NCBI GenBank assembly: GCA_003135555.1
Contig: PLCF01000040.1
Span: 16,101 to 63,595, forward strand
DNA length: 47,495 nucleotides
Reading direction: 5' to 3'
From: Vulcanimicrobiota bacterium
GTDB lineage: Bacteria; Vulcanimicrobiota; Vulcanimicrobiia; Vulcanimicrobiales; Vulcanimicrobiaceae
Positions 10,632 through 18,031 of this stretch are shown here, piece after piece. The notes under the pieces were generated by a model. That model saw nothing but the letters and a program-made list of their open reading frames with translations. It had not been told where the DNA came from and did no database searches. Positions within the stretch are counted from its first letter, which is position 1. Each line of letters begins with the position of its first letter. A program made the translations under genes and the position numbers.

Positions 10632-11216
10632 TTGAATCACGCCGACCTGCCGCACGAGACCAGCGCGCTCGCGCGCGCCCTCATCGGCAAGCTGCTGGTC
10701 CGCCGGCTCGAGGGCGAGCTCCTGGTCGGGCGCATCGTCGAGACCGAGGCGTACTTCGCCGACGACCCGGCCTCGCACGCCTTCCGCGGGATGACGCGGC
10801 GCAACCGCGCGATGTTCGGCCCGCCGTTGCATGCCTACGTCTACTTCATCTACGGCACCAATTGGTGTCTCAACGTCACCAGCGAGAGTGAAGGTACCGG
10901 CGCGGCGGCGCTGGTGCGCGCCTGCGAGCCCATCGGCGGCACGGCGACGATGCGCGCGCTGCGCGGACGGCCCGCACTGCGCGACCGCGACCTGGCGCGC
11001 GGGCCGGGGAACCTCTGCCGAGCCTTCGCGATCGGCCCCGAGTTCGACGGGGCCGACCTGTCGGCGAATCCGACGCTCTGGCTCGCCGACGACGGCACCA
11101 TCCTGCCGACCGGGGTGAGCGCCCGGATCGGGATCAGCAAGGCCGCGGCGGAGCCGTGGCGCTTCTACGCCCAGGGCAACCGCAGCGTCAGCGGACCTCG
11201 CGCCTTGTCGCCCTGA
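10632..11216 (+). CDS. mpg: 3-methyladenine DNA glycosylase (MPG/AAG family)
   Basis: Motifs GRIVETEAY, DPASHA, MFGPPLHAYVYFIYG, RGPGNLC and RIGISKA. TTG start at 10632. Confidence 0.93.
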   Translation: MNHADLPHETSALARALIGKLLVRRLEGELLVGRIVETEAYFADDPASHAFRGMTRRNRAMFGPPLHAYVYFIYGTNWCLNVTSESEGTGAAALVRACEPIGGTATMRALRGRPALRDRDLARGPGNLCRAFAIGPEFDGADLSANPTLWLADDGTILPTGVSARIGISKAAAEPWRFYAQGNRSVSGPRALSP

Positions 11217-11233
11217 CGCGGCTGTGATAGACT
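11205..11233 (+). promoter_or_regulatory. Putative sigma70 promoter for the rho-like-rluB operon
   Basis: TTGTCG-17 nt-TAGACT with a TGn extended -10. Confidence 0.55.
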
Positions 11234-11364
11234 GCGTTGCGTCGCGCGGTCTCGCACCGGCGACGTTCTCGTTCCTCGGCGCTTCGCGCCGACGAGCGGC
11301 CCCGGCAGCCTCGCCGGCCTGGCCGCGTCGTGTGAAACGCCCGTCTCCCCGAGGGAGCATTTCG

Positions 11365-12765
11365 CTGCAGTTCGACAATCGACCCCAGCACAACGGTAAG
11401 CCGGAAGGTGGCCGTCGCCGCCGTTCGCGGCGTAACCGCCAGCGTTTCAACGAAGCCGGCGCGCCGCAGCAGCCGCACGACGTCTTCACCCAACCGGAGT
11501 TCCCGCAGGCCGTCGGGCCGCCGCTGCTCTCCGCCGACCAGCTCGCCGAGATGAGCAAAGCCGAGCTCAACGAGCTGGCCAAGACCTTCGAGATCGAAAA
11601 CCCGACCAAGATCAAGAAGGACGAGCTCGTCGCGCAGATCCTCGAGCTGCAAGCGCAGCGCAGCGGCCTCGAAAAGGCCAACGGCGTCCTCGACGTCTTG
11701 CCCGAGGGCTACGGCTTCCTACGTCGCGACGGCTACCTCGTCGGTGCGGACGACATCTACATCTCGCAGTCGCAGATCCGGCGCTTCGAGCTGCGCCGCG
11801 GCGACCTCGTCGCGGGCCAAGTCCGCAAGCCCAAAGAGAACGAGAAGTATTACGGTATCGTCAAGGTCGAGACGGTCAACGGCTACGCGCCCGAGGCGCT
11901 CGCCAACCGGCGGGTCTTCGAAGAGCTCGGCGCCGAACCGCCGACCCAGCGTTTCGTGCTCGAGACACGCGGCGATTTGGCGATGCGGGCGATGGACCTC
12001 TTCGCGCCGCTCGGCCGTGGCCAGCGAGCGCTCCTGCTCACGCCGCAGCGCGCCGACGAAGCCGCGCTGCTGGTGCGCATCGCAAGGGCGCTCGAAAAGA
12101 ATCATCCCGACGCGCAGGTCATCGTCCTGCTCGTCGACGAGCGTCCCGAAGCGGTCACGCACTTCGGGCGCATGCTCGACGTCGAGGTCGTCGCGACCAC
12201 GTTCGAAGAACACCCCGACAACCACGTGACGACCGCCGAGCTCGTCTTCGAGCGCGCCAAGCGACTCGCCGAGATCGGCCTCGACGCGGTCGTGCTCGTT
12301 TCGTCGTTCACGCGCCTGGTCCGTGCCTACGCCGCGATCTCGCACCACAAGGGCAATCCCGCACTGATGGACGCCGCGCTCTTGGGGCGCCCCAAGCGCC
12401 TGTTCGGAGCGGCGCGTGCCGTCGCCGGCGGGGGTTCGCTCACCGTGATCGCGGCGGCCGGCGCAGGCAGCTCCGCGCTCGATGCGCTCGTCGTCGAAGA
12501 GTTCTCGCCGGCGTCCAACGCCGAGATCGTGCTCTCGCGCGAGCTGGCCGAAGCGCGCGCGTATCCTCCCGTCGATCTCGTGCGCAGCGGCAACTCGTAC
12601 GAGGAGCAGTTGCTCAGCGAGATCGCGCTGCACAAGGTGACCGATCTCCGCCGCGCCCTGGCGCGAACGCCGACGGTCGAAGCTTCGGAGCGGATCTATG
12701 CCGCGCTTGCGCGGACGGAGACGAACGACGAGTTCGTCACCAAGTTCGATCTGAAGAAGGTCTGA
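11365..12765 (+). CDS. Rho transcription-termination-factor homologue with intact RNA-binding domain and degenerate ATPase domain (CTG start proposed)
   Basis: Rho N-terminal helix bundle, EGYGFLR, DDIYISQSQIRRFELRRGD, GRGQR, DERPE and PKRLFGAAR are present. P-loop, Walker B and arginine finger are altered. Confidence 0.9.
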   Translation: MQFDNRPQHNGKPEGGRRRRSRRNRQRFNEAGAPQQPHDVFTQPEFPQAVGPPLLSADQLAEMSKAELNELAKTFEIENPTKIKKDELVAQILELQAQRSGLEKANGVLDVLPEGYGFLRRDGYLVGADDIYISQSQIRRFELRRGDLVAGQVRKPKENEKYYGIVKVETVNGYAPEALANRRVFEELGAEPPTQRFVLETRGDLAMRAMDLFAPLGRGQRALLLTPQRADEAALLVRIARALEKNHPDAQVIVLLVDERPEAVTHFGRMLDVEVVATTFEEHPDNHVTTAELVFERAKRLAEIGLDAVVLVSSFTRLVRAYAAISHHKGNPALMDAALLGRPKRLFGAARAVAGGGSLTVIAAAGAGSSALDALVVEEFSPASNAEIVLSRELAEARAYPPVDLVRSGNSYEEQLLSEIALHKVTDLRRALARTPTVEASERIYAALARTETNDEFVTKFDLKKV

Positions 12766-13520
12766 GACTCCAGAAATACCTCGCGGCGGCCGGCGTAGCG
12801 TCGCGCCGCCGCGCCGAGGAACTCATTGTCGCCGGACGGGTGCGCGTTGGCGGTCGCGTCGTGCGCGAGCTCGGCACGGGAGTCGAGGCGGATGCGCGGG
12901 TCGAGGTCGACGGACGTATCGTGCGGCCCGCCGCGACCCGCACCTACGTCGTGCTGCACAAGCCTCCCGGCGTGATGACGACGCTGCGCGATCCCGAGGG
13001 CCGGCGCACCGTCGCCGACGTCGTGCGCCGTGCCGGCGTCACGGCCCGCGTGCTGCCGGTCGGGCGGCTCGACTACGACACGAGCGGCGTGCTGCTGCTC
13101 ACCGACGACGGCGAGATCACCAACATCCTCACGCATCCCCGCTTCGGTGTCGAGAAGACGTACCGCGCGACGCTGCGCGGCCGGCTCGAGCCGGCTGCCG
13201 TCGAGAAGATCTTGCGCGGCGTGCGCCTCGACGAAGGCCGCGCCGCGCCGGCGCTGGTGCGCGTCGTCGCGGTGCGGCGTGACGTCTCGCTCGTCGACAT
13301 CACCATCCACGAGGGCCGCAACCGCCAGGTGCGCCGCATGTTCGAGGTCGTCGAGCATCCGGTGCTCGCGCTCGTGCGGCTGCGCTTCGGCCCGATCTCG
13401 CTGGGCGAGCTCGCCCCCGGCGCGGTCCGCCCCGTCACCGAGCGCGAGCTAGCCGCCCTCCACCGCATCGCCGCCGAAGCCAAAGACGACGCCGACTCGC
13501 GTAGCGAGTCCCCCGGGTGA
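12762..13520 (+). CDS. rluB: rRNA pseudouridine synthase (RluB/RsuA family)
   Basis: S4 motif RLQKYLAAAGVASRRRAEELI begins at CTG 12762. Also HKPPG, PVGRLDYDTSG and EGRNRQVRRM. Confidence 0.9.
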   Translation: MRLQKYLAAAGVASRRRAEELIVAGRVRVGGRVVRELGTGVEADARVEVDGRIVRPAATRTYVVLHKPPGVMTTLRDPEGRRTVADVVRRAGVTARVLPVGRLDYDTSGVLLLTDDGEITNILTHPRFGVEKTYRATLRGRLEPAAVEKILRGVRLDEGRAAPALVRVVAVRRDVSLVDITIHEGRNRQVRRMFEVVEHPVLALVRLRFGPISLGELAPGAVRPVTERELAALHRIAAEAKDDADSRSESPG

Positions 13521-14033: not shown

Positions 14034-14202
14034 CTGCAACCGCAGTTGCGGGCGCTAGGCGCCCGGCAGGTGAAGGGCCAACGGTGAGGCAATCGCGCTC
14101 GGTCGCAGCGTGCGTCGTGAGTCGCCGGAGACCCGCGCACCAGGAACTGACCGCGTCCCTCGCGCGTTAGTCCCCGTACCCCACCGCATGTCACGAGGTA
14201 TC

Positions 14203-15540
14203 ATGGCTCATCCGACCTCTCGTCTGTTCGCCGCGCTCGCGCTCGGAACGCTCGCGCTCGCCGTGAGCCCGCCCGGCGCCTGGGCGCAGACCTCGACCTA
14301 CTACACGCCGCCGAAGATGATCAAGCAGGCGCAGACCAGCGTCACGATCGCCGGCACCGGCGCGGTCACGGTCCAAGTCTTCGTGCACAAGGACGGTACG
14401 ATCGGCACGATGACGCTGAAGAAGTCGACCAATCACGGCGACGACGCAGCGGCACTCGACATCGCGAAGAACTCGAGCTACAAGGCCGGCGTGCGGGACG
14501 GGAAACCGATCGATGCCTACTACACGATGGCGCTCAAGTTCAACGGCTCGTCGGTCGTCAACGATACCGGAACGAGCTCGAACCAGCTGCTTGCCGCGAA
14601 CGGCCTGATTCGCGCCGGCAAGTACGCCGAAGCGAAGGCCGAGGTCGATAGCTACTTGAGCTCCCACGCCGGCGACAAGAACGCCGAGCTGCTGCTCGGC
14701 ATCGCCGACACCTACCTCAACGATGCGCCAGGAGCGGTGGCCGCGTTCGACCAGGCCGGAACGATCCCCGAGCGCTTCCAGGTCGCGGCGGCAAAAGCAT
14801 ATGCCGACGCCGCCGTCGCCGCGCTCAAAGCGAAGAACAACGACCTGGCCATCGCCTTGGCGGACAAAGCCCTCGCGCAGCAGGTCAACGTCAACACGTT
14901 GTTCATCCGCGGGACCGCCTACGCGAACGCGCAGAAGTACCCGCAGGCGATCGCCGACCTCGAGCGGGCCAAGACCAATGCGGTCTCCGGCAAGGCCGAC
15001 ACCGCGACGATGAACGCGATCGACGCCTCGCTGGCGACGTCGTACATCTTCGGGGGCCAGACCGACAAGGGCGTCGCGCTGGCGAAAGCGCTCAAGGCCC
15101 GCGATCCCTCGAACACCCGCGTCGACGACACCTTGGCGGCGTACTACAACCAGCAGGCCATCGCCGCGATGAACGCGGGCAAGAAGGCCGAGGCTGTGGC
15201 CGACCTCGAGGCCGCGGCGAAGGCTGTCCCATCGCGAGCCGTCATCCTCTACGTTCAGGCGGCCAACATCCTCTCGCAAGGCGACAAGCCCGACTGGAGC
15301 GTCGTAAAGGCGGAAGCCGACAAGGCGCTCGCCATCAACGCCAACGACGCGCGCGCCAACTACGTCGCTGGGATCGCGCTCGCCAACGCGCTCGACCCCA
15401 AGGGCGCCAAGCCCGACACGAAGCCTGCGCTGGCATACCTCCAGAAGGCCAAGGCCAACGTCGGCGCGGACGCATCCCTCAGCGCCGATATCGACAAGGC
15501 CATCGCGGCGCTCGCCAAGATGGGTACGCCCAAGCAGTAG
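14203..15540 (+). CDS. Secreted protein with an N-terminal TonB-C domain and TPR-like repeats
   Basis: SD GAGGT, signal peptide ending AWA-Q, TonB C-terminal pattern GAVTVQVFVHKDG...DAAAL...YKAGVRDGKPI, then repeated TPR helices. Confidence 0.75.
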   Translation: MAHPTSRLFAALALGTLALAVSPPGAWAQTSTYYTPPKMIKQAQTSVTIAGTGAVTVQVFVHKDGTIGTMTLKKSTNHGDDAAALDIAKNSSYKAGVRDGKPIDAYYTMALKFNGSSVVNDTGTSSNQLLAANGLIRAGKYAEAKAEVDSYLSSHAGDKNAELLLGIADTYLNDAPGAVAAFDQAGTIPERFQVAAAKAYADAAVAALKAKNNDLAIALADKALAQQVNVNTLFIRGTAYANAQKYPQAIADLERAKTNAVSGKADTATMNAIDASLATSYIFGGQTDKGVALAKALKARDPSNTRVDDTLAAYYNQQAIAAMNAGKKAEAVADLEAAAKAVPSRAVILYVQAANILSQGDKPDWSVVKAEADKALAINANDARANYVAGIALANALDPKGAKPDTKPALAYLQKAKANVGADASLSADIDKAIAALAKMGTPKQ

Positions 15541-15665
15541 GAATGGACGGCGGTGCCGCCAACACCTAGGCCCGCGTCGGGGGCACCGCGCCGTCGCCGT
15601 CGGCCTAGCCCGGCCCGGTAGCCGGACTCCCCAGCTCGCTCGAAGACTCGGAGGCTACACCAGAG

Positions 15666-16343
15666 TTGTTGGATTTCAAAGGCTTTTTCTCCATGATCAA
15701 CGCGGGCGGCCCGGCGATGTATATGCTGCTCGTCATGTCGATCGCCGCCGTAGCCATCGTCATCGAGCGACTGCTCTTCTTCGCGAGCCAGCACTCGGAC
15801 TCGAAGGGCCTGCTGCGGTCGATCGGCCAGCGCATCGCTGCCGACGACCTCGACGGCGCGATCAAGATCTGCCAGCAGAACAAGGGCATGCTCCCGAAGA
15901 TTCTGGAATTCGGCCTGCAGCGCGGCGAGAAGAACCGCGCCGACATCACCGACGCCCTCTCGATCGCCCTCATGGAGAACCTCAACTCCCTGGAGCGCAA
16001 TCTCGGCGTCATCGGCACGATCGCCGTCATCGCTCCCTTCGTCGGGTTGTTCGGGACCGTGCTCGGCATCATCCGCGCCTTCCAGGACATCGCCCTCAAG
16101 GGCAACTCGACCCCGGCCGTCGTCGCGGCGGGCGTCTCGGAAGCGCTGATCACGACCGCCGCGGGGCTGTTCGTGGCCGTGATCGCGGTCATTTTCTTCA
16201 ACTACTTCAAGACCCGGATCAAGGCGTACAACCAGGAGATGATCGTGGCGGCCAACCAGCTCGCCGAGATGCTCCACTTCCACAACACCGGTACGCCGAT
16301 CCCGACCGACCTGTACAAGCCGTCGCCCGCCGGGTCACCCTAA
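15666..16343 (+). CDS. exbB: MotA/TolQ/ExbB proton channel protein
   Basis: Motifs LGVIGTIAVIAPFVGLFGTVLGIIRAF and GVSEALITTAAGLFVA. TTG start after GGAGG. Confidence 0.92.
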   Translation: MLDFKGFFSMINAGGPAMYMLLVMSIAAVAIVIERLLFFASQHSDSKGLLRSIGQRIAADDLDGAIKICQQNKGMLPKILEFGLQRGEKNRADITDALSIALMENLNSLERNLGVIGTIAVIAPFVGLFGTVLGIIRAFQDIALKGNSTPAVVAAGVSEALITTAAGLFVAVIAVIFFNYFKTRIKAYNQEMIVAANQLAEMLHFHNTGTPIPTDLYKPSPAGSP

Positions 16344-16373
16344 CCTGAACCTCACGGCCGGAGAGCTCGACTC

Positions 16374-16787
16374 ATGAGCATGGTGTCCGCCCAGCAGGAC
16401 GATGCGGTGATGGCCGAGATCAACATCACGCCGTTCACCGACGTGCTGCTGGTCCTGCTCATCATTTTCATGATCCTGGCAGCGCTCGTGGCGCCGCCTG
16501 GTTTCGAAAAGCAACTTCCCGACAAAAACGACAACACGCCGGTGCAGCAACAGAAGAAGACCGACAGCATCGAGGTGCTCGTCAACGAAACCGGGGTAAT
16601 CTATGTCGACGGCAAGCGCACCGACGAGGCGCACATCTATGCCGACATGTCCGACGTCCGGCGCCGCCGTGGCGACAAGCACGTATCGCTGACGGCGGAC
16701 GTCAAGGCGCCCTACGGCACGATCATCAGGATCCTCGACGCTGCCAAGATCGCGGGCCTCGAGGACGTCGGTTTCGTCACCTCGTGA
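16374..16787 (+). CDS. exbD: ExbD/TolR protein
   Basis: EINITPFTDVLLVLLIIFM, with the conserved TM aspartate. Confidence 0.92.
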   Translation: MSMVSAQQDDAVMAEINITPFTDVLLVLLIIFMILAALVAPPGFEKQLPDKNDNTPVQQQKKTDSIEVLVNETGVIYVDGKRTDEAHIYADMSDVRRRRGDKHVSLTADVKAPYGTIIRILDAAKIAGLEDVGFVTS

Positions 16788-16843
16788 GCACGCCCAACAT
16801 TTCCGGCAAAGCCGGAAGCCGCTAGGAAAAGGAAGCCCGCTTC

Positions 16844-17272
16844 GTGGCCGTCACCACCGGACAAGGCGAAGAAGAAGTGATGTCGACGATCAATATCACG
16901 CCCTTCACGGACGTGCTGTTGGTCCTGCTGATCATCTTCATCATCCTCGCCTCGGTCGTCAAAGAGCCTCGGCTCCCTGACGCCAAGAACAAGATCAAGG
17001 TCCATCCCTCGCAGATCGTGGTGCTCGTCGACGAGAAGAACCAGGTGCAGATCGGTTCGAACATCGTCAACGAGATGCAGGCGAAGGAGCAGTTCGCGCA
17101 ACTCGTCAAGTCGACGGGCAGCGGCCTCAAGACGGTCATCATCAAGGCGAACCCCAAGGCGAGCTTCGGCACGATCTTGCGCGTGATGGACGCGGCCAAG
17201 TCGGCGAACCTCACCACCTTCGGGCTGGCCAACCACATCGAAGGCTTGCCGGAAGGCGCAACGGGCACCTAG
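16844..17272 (+). CDS. exbD: Second ExbD/TolR protein
   Basis: INITPFTDVLLVLLIIFII; paralogue of the upstream gene. Confidence 0.9.
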   Translation: MAVTTGQGEEEVMSTINITPFTDVLLVLLIIFIILASVVKEPRLPDAKNKIKVHPSQIVVLVDEKNQVQIGSNIVNEMQAKEQFAQLVKSTGSGLKTVIIKANPKASFGTILRVMDAAKSANLTTFGLANHIEGLPEGATGT

Positions 17273-18031
17273 ATGGCGAACACGCCCGACTCGGCGCCCC
17301 CGGTCTACACGTCCGAGCGGGCCAAGAGCTTCCTTGTCTACGGCTTCGCGATCTCGATCGTGTTGCACCTGACCCTCGGACCACTCTTGCCGAAAGAGCG
17401 CACGCAAGTCGAAGAAGACCAGCCGCAAAAAGTGACGGTCGTGCGCGTCCCGACACCGCCGCCGACGCCGCCGCCGACTCCGACCCCGCACCCGACGCCG
17501 CCGCCGACGCCGCCGCCCAAGACGACGCCGCCCCCCAACACGCCCGCGCCGCAGCAGCCCAAGATCAAGATCAACACGCAGAAGACCGAGTCGAAAACGA
17601 ACACCGGTCCCAGCGAAGCGACCAACAAGTACACGACGGGCAACACGCAGGGCATCCCGCAGGGCTTGGGCACCTCCGCGCCGTCGACCGCCCCGCCGGC
17701 GACGCCGGCTCCCGCGCCGCCGACGCCGCAGCCGACGCGTACCCCGCAGTCGTGCGCGCGACCCAATGTCCCCGCGTCCACCATTCACGCGATCGAGCCC
17801 GATACGCCGGCGCTGGCGCAGCAACAGGGGATCCAAGGCACGGTTCAAGTCGTCGTTTCGCTCAACGAGGGCAGTCGCGTCACCGGCACCCGCGTGCAGA
17901 GCTCGCCCAGCGCGGTGCTCAACCAGGCCGCACTCTCGGCGGCGCGGCAATCGTCGTTCCAAACCGAGATCCGCGATTGCAAGCCGATCGCCGCAGACTA
18001 CATCTTCAGCGTCGAGTTCACTTCGCAATAA
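17273..18031 (+). CDS. tonB: Energy transducer TonB
   Basis: TM helix with SxxxH (SIVLH), Pro/Thr-rich spacer, and C-terminal TonB domain GIQGTVQVVV...LNQAAL. Confidence 0.9.
   Translation: MANTPDSAPPVYTSERAKSFLVYGFAISIVLHLTLGPLLPKERTQVEEDQPQKVTVVRVPTPPPTPPPTPTPHPTPPPTPPPKTTPPPNTPAPQQPKIKINTQKTESKTNTGPSEATNKYTTGNTQGIPQGLGTSAPSTAPPATPAPAPPTPQPTRTPQSCARPNVPASTIHAIEPDTPALAQQQGIQGTVQVVVSLNEGSRVTGTRVQSSPSAVLNQAALSAARQSSFQTEIRDCKPIAADYIFSVEFTSQ
17450..17560 (+). repeat. Low-complexity Pro-Thr coding repeat within tonB
   Basis: Repeated ccgacgccgccg units encode PTPPPTPPPTPTPHPTPPPTPPP. Confidence 0.7.

Follow-up and report, generated by a model that had tools for sequence, protein, structure and literature searches.

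A motor-dead Rho homologue maintained as the only rho gene found in a genus of Vulcanimicrobiaceae

Functional Rho factors have been reported to share a highly conserved ATPase domain (PMC11347177), and Rho-like proteins with a dead motor are already on record: according to the supplement of the same paper, such proteins of Thermoleophilia and Rubrobacteria (Conexibacter woesei, Baekduia soli) keep the N-terminal domains, have Val or Ala where the catalytic Glu would be, are without Q and R loops, and obtain no Rho ATPase-domain score. The short-form Rho paralogue (NF041509, group B Rho) has no N-terminal domain, retains the catalytic residues and stands beside a second rho (PMC11347177), while intact Rho can be held in natural, reversible, inactive open-ring states by Rof, Psu or ADP/(p)ppGpp (PMC11018626, PMC11829017). 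Here, we analyze a stretch of 47,495 nucleotides (nt) from a Vulcanimicrobiota bacterium of the family Vulcanimicrobiaceae (assembly GCA_003135555.1, contig PLCF01000040.1, positions 16,101 to 63,595; hereafter the window), which encodes, at 11365..12765 on the forward strand, a Rho homologue that has lost its ATPase motifs and that we call pseudo-Rho. We find it to be a genuine pseudo-enzyme, conserved across its lineage, that adds a new form to a type scarcely described before and has living intermediates: strong selection maintains one motor-dead Rho throughout a genus, and its relatives show each step from an intact to a deleted gene.

With canonical Rho (Type 2 with an initial region in PMC11347177; Escherichia coli b3783), pseudo-Rho shares the three-domain architecture, the fold and the primary RNA site; it lies at the same ancestral locus, and its orthologues are named Rho in databases. 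However, the Walker A motif, the Walker B Asp, the Arg finger, the Q-loop, the R-loop Lys and W381, all present in the canonical enzyme, have been lost. Group B Rho is likewise an atypical member of the family but of the opposite construction, and pseudo-Rho scores only 311 against an NF041509 cut-off of 628. Unlike that of Rho bound by Rof, Psu, ADP or (p)ppGpp, its inactivity is fixed in the sequence. From the Thermoleophilia and Rubrobacteria proteins it differs in keeping E211 and a recognisable ATPase domain, in having loops that are altered rather than deleted, and in deriving from the Rho of its own family; its nesting among the Rho proteins of that family, in a tree that held no named member of theirs, hints at a separate origin. 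Outside the MPG-rluB context, one Rho-like gene of great divergence (L081, G299:C39), in which Val stands at the catalytic Glu position and the Q and R loops are missing, fits the Thermoleophilia-type description and may represent contamination or transfer.

We found no report of a motor-dead Rho for this phylum in a literature search that had most subscription papers and bioRxiv supplements outside its scope. Nothing was found on Rho in connection with Eremiobacter, and papers on Vulcanimicrobium alpinum do not concern Rho as judged by title or the start of the abstract; in PMC11347177, Eremiobacter is unmentioned in the main text and Vulcanimicrobium, Eremiobacter and WPS-2 are unmentioned in the supplement.

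Motor-site lesions and the conserved N-terminal half

The pseudo-Rho gene is a single, intact open frame of 466 amino acids (aa) that begins with a CTG codon 7 nt 3' of the Shine-Dalgarno sequence GAGGGAG; both the uninterrupted frame and the Shine-Dalgarno sequence had been recognized in a preliminary description made from the DNA alone. The aligned start codon is CTG in the genus and in canonical family members alike, and gene callers often place the start of the rho genes of this family at an earlier codon or at a downstream ATG, the latter giving 404-aa entries. The Pfam domains Rho_N (aa 59–101), Rho_RNA_bind (aa 106–177) and ATP-synt_ab (aa 207–408) follow each other in canonical order. 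As the protein passes the cut-off of PRK09376 (NCBIfam; 419.8 bits, cut-off 315), proteins of this kind are annotated as ordinary Rho; with TIGR00767 it obtains 414.6 bits, under the cut-off of 509.45, whereas a canonical relative passes with 639.9. Rho structures are the top matches in a sequence search of the PDB, and an AlphaFold model built with 54 homologues retains the Rho fold (predicted local distance difference test score, pLDDT, 78.6; Foldseek template modelling score 0.74 against E. coli Rho). The Rho_N helical domain and the OB-fold RNA-binding domain, with the primary site intact, occupy 11539..11895 (this and all further features are on the forward strand). They are preceded by an Arg-rich extension (aa 1–54; 11365..11526) that is predicted to be disordered (pLDDT below 50 for aa 1–52); canonical family members have one too, and codons 1–54 show coding-type conservation (omega 0.105), with most variation at third positions. 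As evidence of expression, three peat RNA runs were uninformative, yielding only 10 short pieces 33–54 nt long and less than 95% identical.

In the ATPase domain (residue numbering follows E. coli Rho, b3783, sequence from NC_000913.3), alignment to E. coli Rho and the PDB search show that the Walker A motif (APPKAGKT, residues 178–185) reads TPQRADEA at 12040..12063, with the changes K181R, G183D, K184E and T185A. The Walker B residue D265 is replaced by Ser (S313 of the query, the protein of the window; 12301..12303), the Q-loop (12346..12372) is two residues shorter and has Asn for K283, the R-loop lysine K326 is replaced by Ala (A371; 12475..12477), segment 336–339 reads SPAS for KGTG, and the Arg finger R366 is replaced by Ser (S411; 12595..12597), a position at which relatives have W, F, A or V. 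Retained are the catalytic E211 and R212 within DERPE (12139..12144), the Q-loop residue D290, R269, R353 (the Arg valve) and K298. The preliminary description was thus accurate about DERPE and about the P-loop, D265 and R366; the FKGTGN segment (335–340) that it placed in the R-loop adjoins this loop, and the Q-loop that it considered gone is shortened and lacks K283 but still has its Asp.

The residues G183, K184, T185, K181 and R366 contact the nucleotide phosphates, and R353–W381 forms the ring-opening switch (PMC11829017). The substitutions D265N and R366A in E. coli Rho strongly impair ATP hydrolysis while leaving RNA binding unharmed, and the equivalent variants in Mycobacterium tuberculosis fail to complement when Rho is depleted (PMC5379054); K326A, which removes the R-loop lysine, lowers ATPase activity by about 75% (PMC4499133). 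Since the nucleotide-contact residues, D265, R366, K326 and W381 have all been lost together, an active motor in pseudo-Rho appears very unlikely.

To place these lesions, we compared 30 loci of the genus (query included) with 30 canonical loci of the same family. Four of the latter, L033, L037, L053 and L058, belong to genomes not yet published (G261, G229, G260, G259), which are included in the canonical counts and the canonical omega, and the unpublished G032, G048, G059, G086 and G254 also enter tallies; the IF2 tree and the IF2-normalised rates given below use no unpublished genomes. K184, R366, K326, K283 and W381 occur in none of the genus loci and in all of the canonical ones, while D265 and G183, likewise present in 30 of 30 canonical loci, are kept in only three and five genus loci, respectively. 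The lesion pattern of 82 database homologues (P0002–P0084, excluding the chimeric-looking P0082) agrees with that of the genus loci. Orthologues were detected in all 36 same-genus genomes drawn (63–93% identity over matched pieces, 78–88% for full-length matches); the 30 matches of full or nearly full length have intact frames, and frameshift-like pieces occur in one 65%-complete genome. As orthologues genus-wide carry the same lesions in intact frames, recent decay or an assembly error is ruled out. Close homologues bear the names Candidatus (Ca.) Elarobacter, Ca. Eremiobacteraeota and V. alpinum, and NCBI assigns Ca. Elarobacter to the Vulcanimicrobiaceae. V. alpinum is a cultured organism, and as the orthologue bearing its name has the same lesions, experimental tests are feasible.

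We defined deeply conserved positions as those at which all canonical family members agree, E. coli has the same residue and 42 distant Rhos show at least 90% conservation, the list of motor sites being drawn up in part from background knowledge. The query retains 25 of 25 such N-terminal positions, 11 of 28 motor-site positions and 68 of 98 other C-terminal positions (motor versus other, p = 0.007); at the genus level, the corresponding figures are 25/25, 9/28 and 51/98. A concentrated loss of catalytic residues, as claimed in the preliminary description, therefore holds for the query and also for radical replacements across the genus (15/28 at motor sites versus 19/98 elsewhere in the C-terminal half, p = 0.0007), but simple loss at the genus level is not significantly concentrated at motor sites (p = 0.086). 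The C-terminal half is relaxed throughout, and outside the motor sites its changes stay conservative. The RNA-binding domain is as well conserved as had been described: both the 13 primary binding-site positions and the 12 other deeply conserved N-terminal positions are kept genus-wide, and the equivalents of R87, R88, F89, Q85, R102, K105 and K115 are invariant in the genus.

Omega values (IQ-TREE, GY+F3X4; 29 sequences in each large group, one truncated locus having been dropped from each, and four in the sister genus) for the N-terminal and ATPase halves are 0.033 and 0.098 in the genus, 0.044 and 0.017 in canonical loci, and 0.013 and 0.112 in the sister genus, and pairwise ratios of nonsynonymous to synonymous differences (pN/pS) show the same inversion between the two halves. 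When normalised to that of IF2 between the same pairs of genomes, the amino-acid divergence of the ATPase half reaches 3.34 in the genus (11 genomes) versus 0.41 in canonical genera (15 genomes), while the RNA-binding domain differs little (1.34 versus 1.22). The N-terminal half is thus constrained as in working Rho, and the C-terminal half is relaxed yet far from neutral. Lesions common to the orthologues and purifying selection in both halves show that the protein is maintained rather than recently decayed, which supports this part of the earlier interpretation.

Pseudo-Rho is also the sole rho found. In the query genome, which is 84% complete, both tblastn and Pfam gave a single rho match, the next tblastn matches being FliI/ATP synthase-like (E value 5e-8 or worse). 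rpoB and rpoC were not found in this genome (G000) by tblastn, a sign of incomplete assembly. A Rho RNA-binding domain occurs in 41 of the 44 genus genomes, with one copy in all 15 that are at least 90% complete; two genus genomes have two matches, the second copies being partial and 91–92% identical to the query. The second, canonical rho for which the preliminary description had proposed a search was found neither in the query genome nor in any of the 44 genus genomes, one single-contig genome included. When a canonical family Rho was used as the query, the best E value in 31 genus genomes was 1e-172, versus about 1e-226 or better for full-length matches in canonical genera.

Erosion and deletion of rho within the family

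The wider setting, missed in the preliminary description, is that the gene belongs to a clade in which rho erodes or was deleted. Among phylum genomes that are at least 80% complete, 318 of 357 have rho, and 36 of the 39 without it are Vulcanimicrobiaceae; a Pfam search found no Rho RNA-binding domain in any of the 39, single-contig genomes at 94–97% included. We computed an IF2 tree of 90 genomes (FastTree), into which 29 of the 36 rho-less family genomes were entered, 28 of them giving an IF2, together with a canonical set of 34 family genomes (17 assigned by motif reading, the remainder by score). A single clade (FastTree support 1.0) contains all 11 genus genomes, the sister genus g68, the genera with eroded forms (g39, g65 and g77), the genera g19 and g74, and 27 of the 28 rho-less genomes, and it holds all 21 sampled genomes with an eroded Rho or pseudo-Rho. 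These 27 rho-less genomes span 21 genera, and the one outside the clade is 83% complete. A canonical rho contig in the genome G211 (L277, G211:C252) is probably misbinned.

Family-wide, rho lies between MPG and rluB. In the Rho tree the query nests among the Rho proteins of its own family and, being at the same locus, is orthologous to the family rho; pseudo-Rho has descended vertically from this gene at the ancestral locus. Six rho-less genomes (those of ten fetched that had the block inside the stretch) have MPG followed by rluB with no rho, another gene filling the gap in one of them.

The relatives differ in how far Rho has degenerated. In g65 and g77, GKT, E211, D265 and R366 are kept while the Q-loops and the 336–339 segment are changed, and g39 keeps GKT and has a Q-loop deletion. 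The query genus and its sister genus g68 are both without GKT; the former additionally lacks D265 and R366, whereas the latter lacks E211 and F355 and has a shortened C-terminus. A separate, deeper degeneration at the native locus is seen in g19 (L079 and L080; genomes G111 and G110), in which most of the primary site is kept; the g19 Rho is also without the Arg-rich extension and the leader hairpin motif described below. Because the lesions differ between the sister lineages while the N-terminal half is conserved in both, the comparison suggests that the motor was dispensable before these lineages split; the order of the motor-loss events rests on single-gene trees and is tentative.

Possible functions of a Rho without a motor

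We give an even chance to the reading that pseudo-Rho binds C-rich RNA, and perhaps elongation complexes too, independently of ATP, with its RecA scaffold kept yet inactive, a role that lies close to the RNA chaperone considered in the preliminary description. Classical motor-driven termination would have become dispensable in the ancestor of one Vulcanimicrobiaceae clade; most descendants would have deleted rho, and the query lineage would have kept it for a second job of its N-terminal half. Pseudo-Rho might bind C-rich single-stranded RNA through its primary site and Arg-rich tail, with the inactive RecA domains probably holding it together as an open ring, and would neither close on the RNA nor translocate nor pull RNA out of RNA polymerase. 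It could then hold or regulate nascent or untranslated RNA passively, affecting the shielding, folding or ribosome access of that RNA, and the likeliest target would be the conserved leader of its own gene. Nature would here have separated the RNA- and polymerase-binding role of Rho from its motor role, so that the long-disputed question whether Rho can act without translocating becomes testable; the host genus consists of soil bacteria and offers a natural test of a Rho without its motor.

Gene ends were scanned for U-tract terminators over 40–80 kb per genome, in small samples that differ in GC content and with a home-made gene caller checked on the window alone. Such terminators are rare in all groups: 13/157 in canonical genomes, 4/65 in the genus, 9/300 in the query genome (sampled from 767), 2/32 in the sister genus and 12/141 in rho-less genomes. 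The GC-rich rho-less genomes, from 21 genera of the family (f1; for example G103, G104, G238 and G241), have few of them. Judged by eye in 63 genomes, the A5..T5 pattern was not enriched in those lacking rho or carrying pseudo-Rho, and neither C/G skew after stops nor coding purine content separated the groups. RNase J and Mfd are present in all five genomes tested and so do not track the loss of Rho, and NusG showed no clade-specific change in 30 sequences. A beta-CASP nuclease looked promising as a Rho replacement in five genomes but failed in 239, being present in many canonical genera and in just 10 of 22 other genus members; the beta-CASP metallo-beta-lactamase nuclease of the query genome (G000:C33:5000-6291) belongs to a type that is patchy in the order (131 of 239 genomes) and not tied to the Rho state. 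These analyses expose a GC-rich bacterial clade without a working Rho and with few U-tract terminators.

Several observations weigh against an RNA binder of this kind. NusA/NusG elongation complexes are contacted by the same surface that forms the primary site (PMC11018626), so conservation does not separate RNA binding from polymerase binding. E211, R212, R269, R353 and K298 are invariant in the genus and position 181 is always Arg; therefore, part of the nucleotide pocket is retained. No replacement terminator was found in the searches above. Furthermore, the species tree is that of one gene, IF2, and one genome within the clade (G211, 6% contamination) has a canonical rho, the product of which groups with outside genera.

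The surface shared with polymerase leads to the main alternative, possible though doubtful, in which the clade abandoned motor-driven termination and the remaining Rho is a motor-less terminator or pause factor: its N-terminal domains would dock on NusA/NusG-bound RNA polymerase and C-rich nascent RNA and, without ATP, stall, inactivate or release transcription allosterically or aid weak hairpin terminators. In E. coli Rho, the N-terminal domains use the extended primary site to contact NusA, NusG and polymerase (PMC11018626), the seven invariant residues listed above (Q85 to K115) would suit such contacts, NusG is nearly unchanged, and U-tract terminators are no more frequent in the query genome or its congeners than in canonical genomes. 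If this were true, the disputed polymerase-first pathway would exist here naturally in pure form, in genomes that are GC-rich and have very few U-tract terminators. However, termination requires ATP in reconstituted E. coli complexes (10.1101/2022.08.29.505764) and in M. tuberculosis as well (PMC4499133, PMC5379054), and the C-terminal helices that, by inferred NusG-contact residues and helix numbering, face NusG-KOW are altered (W381 lost, I382 to D or A; truncated in the sister genus). The rho-less sister genera have equally few U-tract terminators, and the clade therefore seems not to need Rho for termination. It is unlikely, in turn, that the gene is a vestige that persists mainly as a promoter and translational coupling for rluB, with selection solely against misfolding. 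Its absence from 21 genera of the same clade and the series intact, eroded, dead and deleted do resemble a route to loss; the ATPase half evolves about eight times faster than in canonical relatives, and in 28 of 30 genus loci the distance between the rho stop and the rluB start is at most 25 nt, as opposed to at least 20 nt in 21 of the 22 canonical loci in which it could be placed. Yet the N-terminal omega is as low as in working Rho, the invariant positions include surface RNA-contact residues and not core residues alone, and frames are intact in all matches that cover the gene fully or nearly so, frameshift-like pieces occurring in the one 65%-complete genome; since MPG and rluB are directly adjacent where rho is missing, rluB does not depend on rho.

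A rewired pocket, which would bind nucleotide as a sensor or hydrolyse it slowly by means of Arg181 together with E211, R212, R269 and R353, is in our view highly improbable. These five residues are invariant in 30 of 30 genus loci, position 355 (F355) is aromatic in 29 of 30, and in E. coli the nucleotide site mediates the regulation of Rho by ADP and (p)ppGpp (PMC11829017); but positions 182–186 vary freely among mostly acidic or small residues, unlike a binding site, the sister genus lost E211 and F355 instead, and the kept arginines may be structural. The proposals of the preliminary description that pseudo-Rho is a dominant-negative or regulatory subunit of mixed Rho hexamers, or a competitor of canonical Rho, are the hardest to sustain. 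Hetero-hexamers have been suggested for species with two rho genes (PMC11347177), and the query genome is only 84% complete; however, with no canonical copy in the 44 genus genomes, 15 of them at least 90% complete and one a single contig, a partner is missing and the competitor has nothing to compete with, and the pseudo-Rho gene itself occupies the ancestral rho locus. We consider mixed hexamers scarcely credible.

The rho leader and neighbouring genes

The gene is preceded by a conserved leader of about 130 nt, counted from a putative extended -10 promoter, TGn-TAGACT (11225..11233), that is kept in 28 aligned genus leaders and resembles a motif in canonical relatives. The promoter of its own that had been ascribed to the gene is supported to this extent, but a sigma70 scan found no promoter. 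Within the leader lie a pyrimidine/C-rich tract (11266..11277), a candidate ligand of the primary site that is kept in the genus and has C-rich counterparts in canonical leaders; a hairpin, CCGGC-AGCCUC-GCCGG, with an invariant AGCCUC loop (11302..11317), whose motif is found in 30/30 genus and 28/29 canonical leaders; and, in the consensus structure, a hairpin CTCCC-CGA-GGGAG over the Shine-Dalgarno sequence (11345..11357), which has a shorter CTCT/AGAG form in canonical leaders. A U-run (TTT within 16 nt) follows the AGCCUC hairpin in 26 canonical leaders versus one genus leader, and is absent in the query. In the sister genus g68, whose GC content is near that of canonical genera, all five leaders have a compensatory GGT/ACC hairpin stem and no U-run. 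Covariation is weak among genus leaders (-0.31 kcal/mol; two-sided changes in 6 of 39 pairs), no Rfam family matches the leader, and rho-less genomes have lost it along with the gene.

With a C-rich site, a hairpin and, in canonical relatives, a U-run, the leader of this family resembles the autoregulatory rho attenuators of E. coli and Bacillus subtilis, a likeness that is suggestive only, as is the fit between a leader that kept its C-rich site and hairpin but dropped its U-run and a protein that binds but may terminate no longer. The family-wide leader RNA (window 11225–11365; loci L002–L075), with its invariant GGC-AGCCUC-GCC hairpin, is perhaps an undescribed cis-regulatory element.

Upstream of the leader lies MPG, a 3-methyladenine DNA glycosylase gene (10632..11216; Pfam PF02245) identified also by its synteny. 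Downstream is a pseudouridine synthase gene (12762..13520; Pfam PF00849), which we take to be rluB and whose probable CTG start overlaps the rho stop. This overlap, pointed out in the preliminary description, amounts to 4 nt (CTGA) here but is seen in just three of the 30 genus loci. Among the genus loci (L002–L031), the codon at the usual rluB start position is CTG in 19 of 29, with GTG in one and non-start codons (CAG, CCG, TCG, GCG, CAA) in nine, while related genera have ATG or GTG. Downstream of rluB-aroH, at 14110–18031, a syntenic group comprises a TonB C-terminal/TPR protein, the one member covered by the domain scan, followed by apparent exbB, two exbD and tonB genes.

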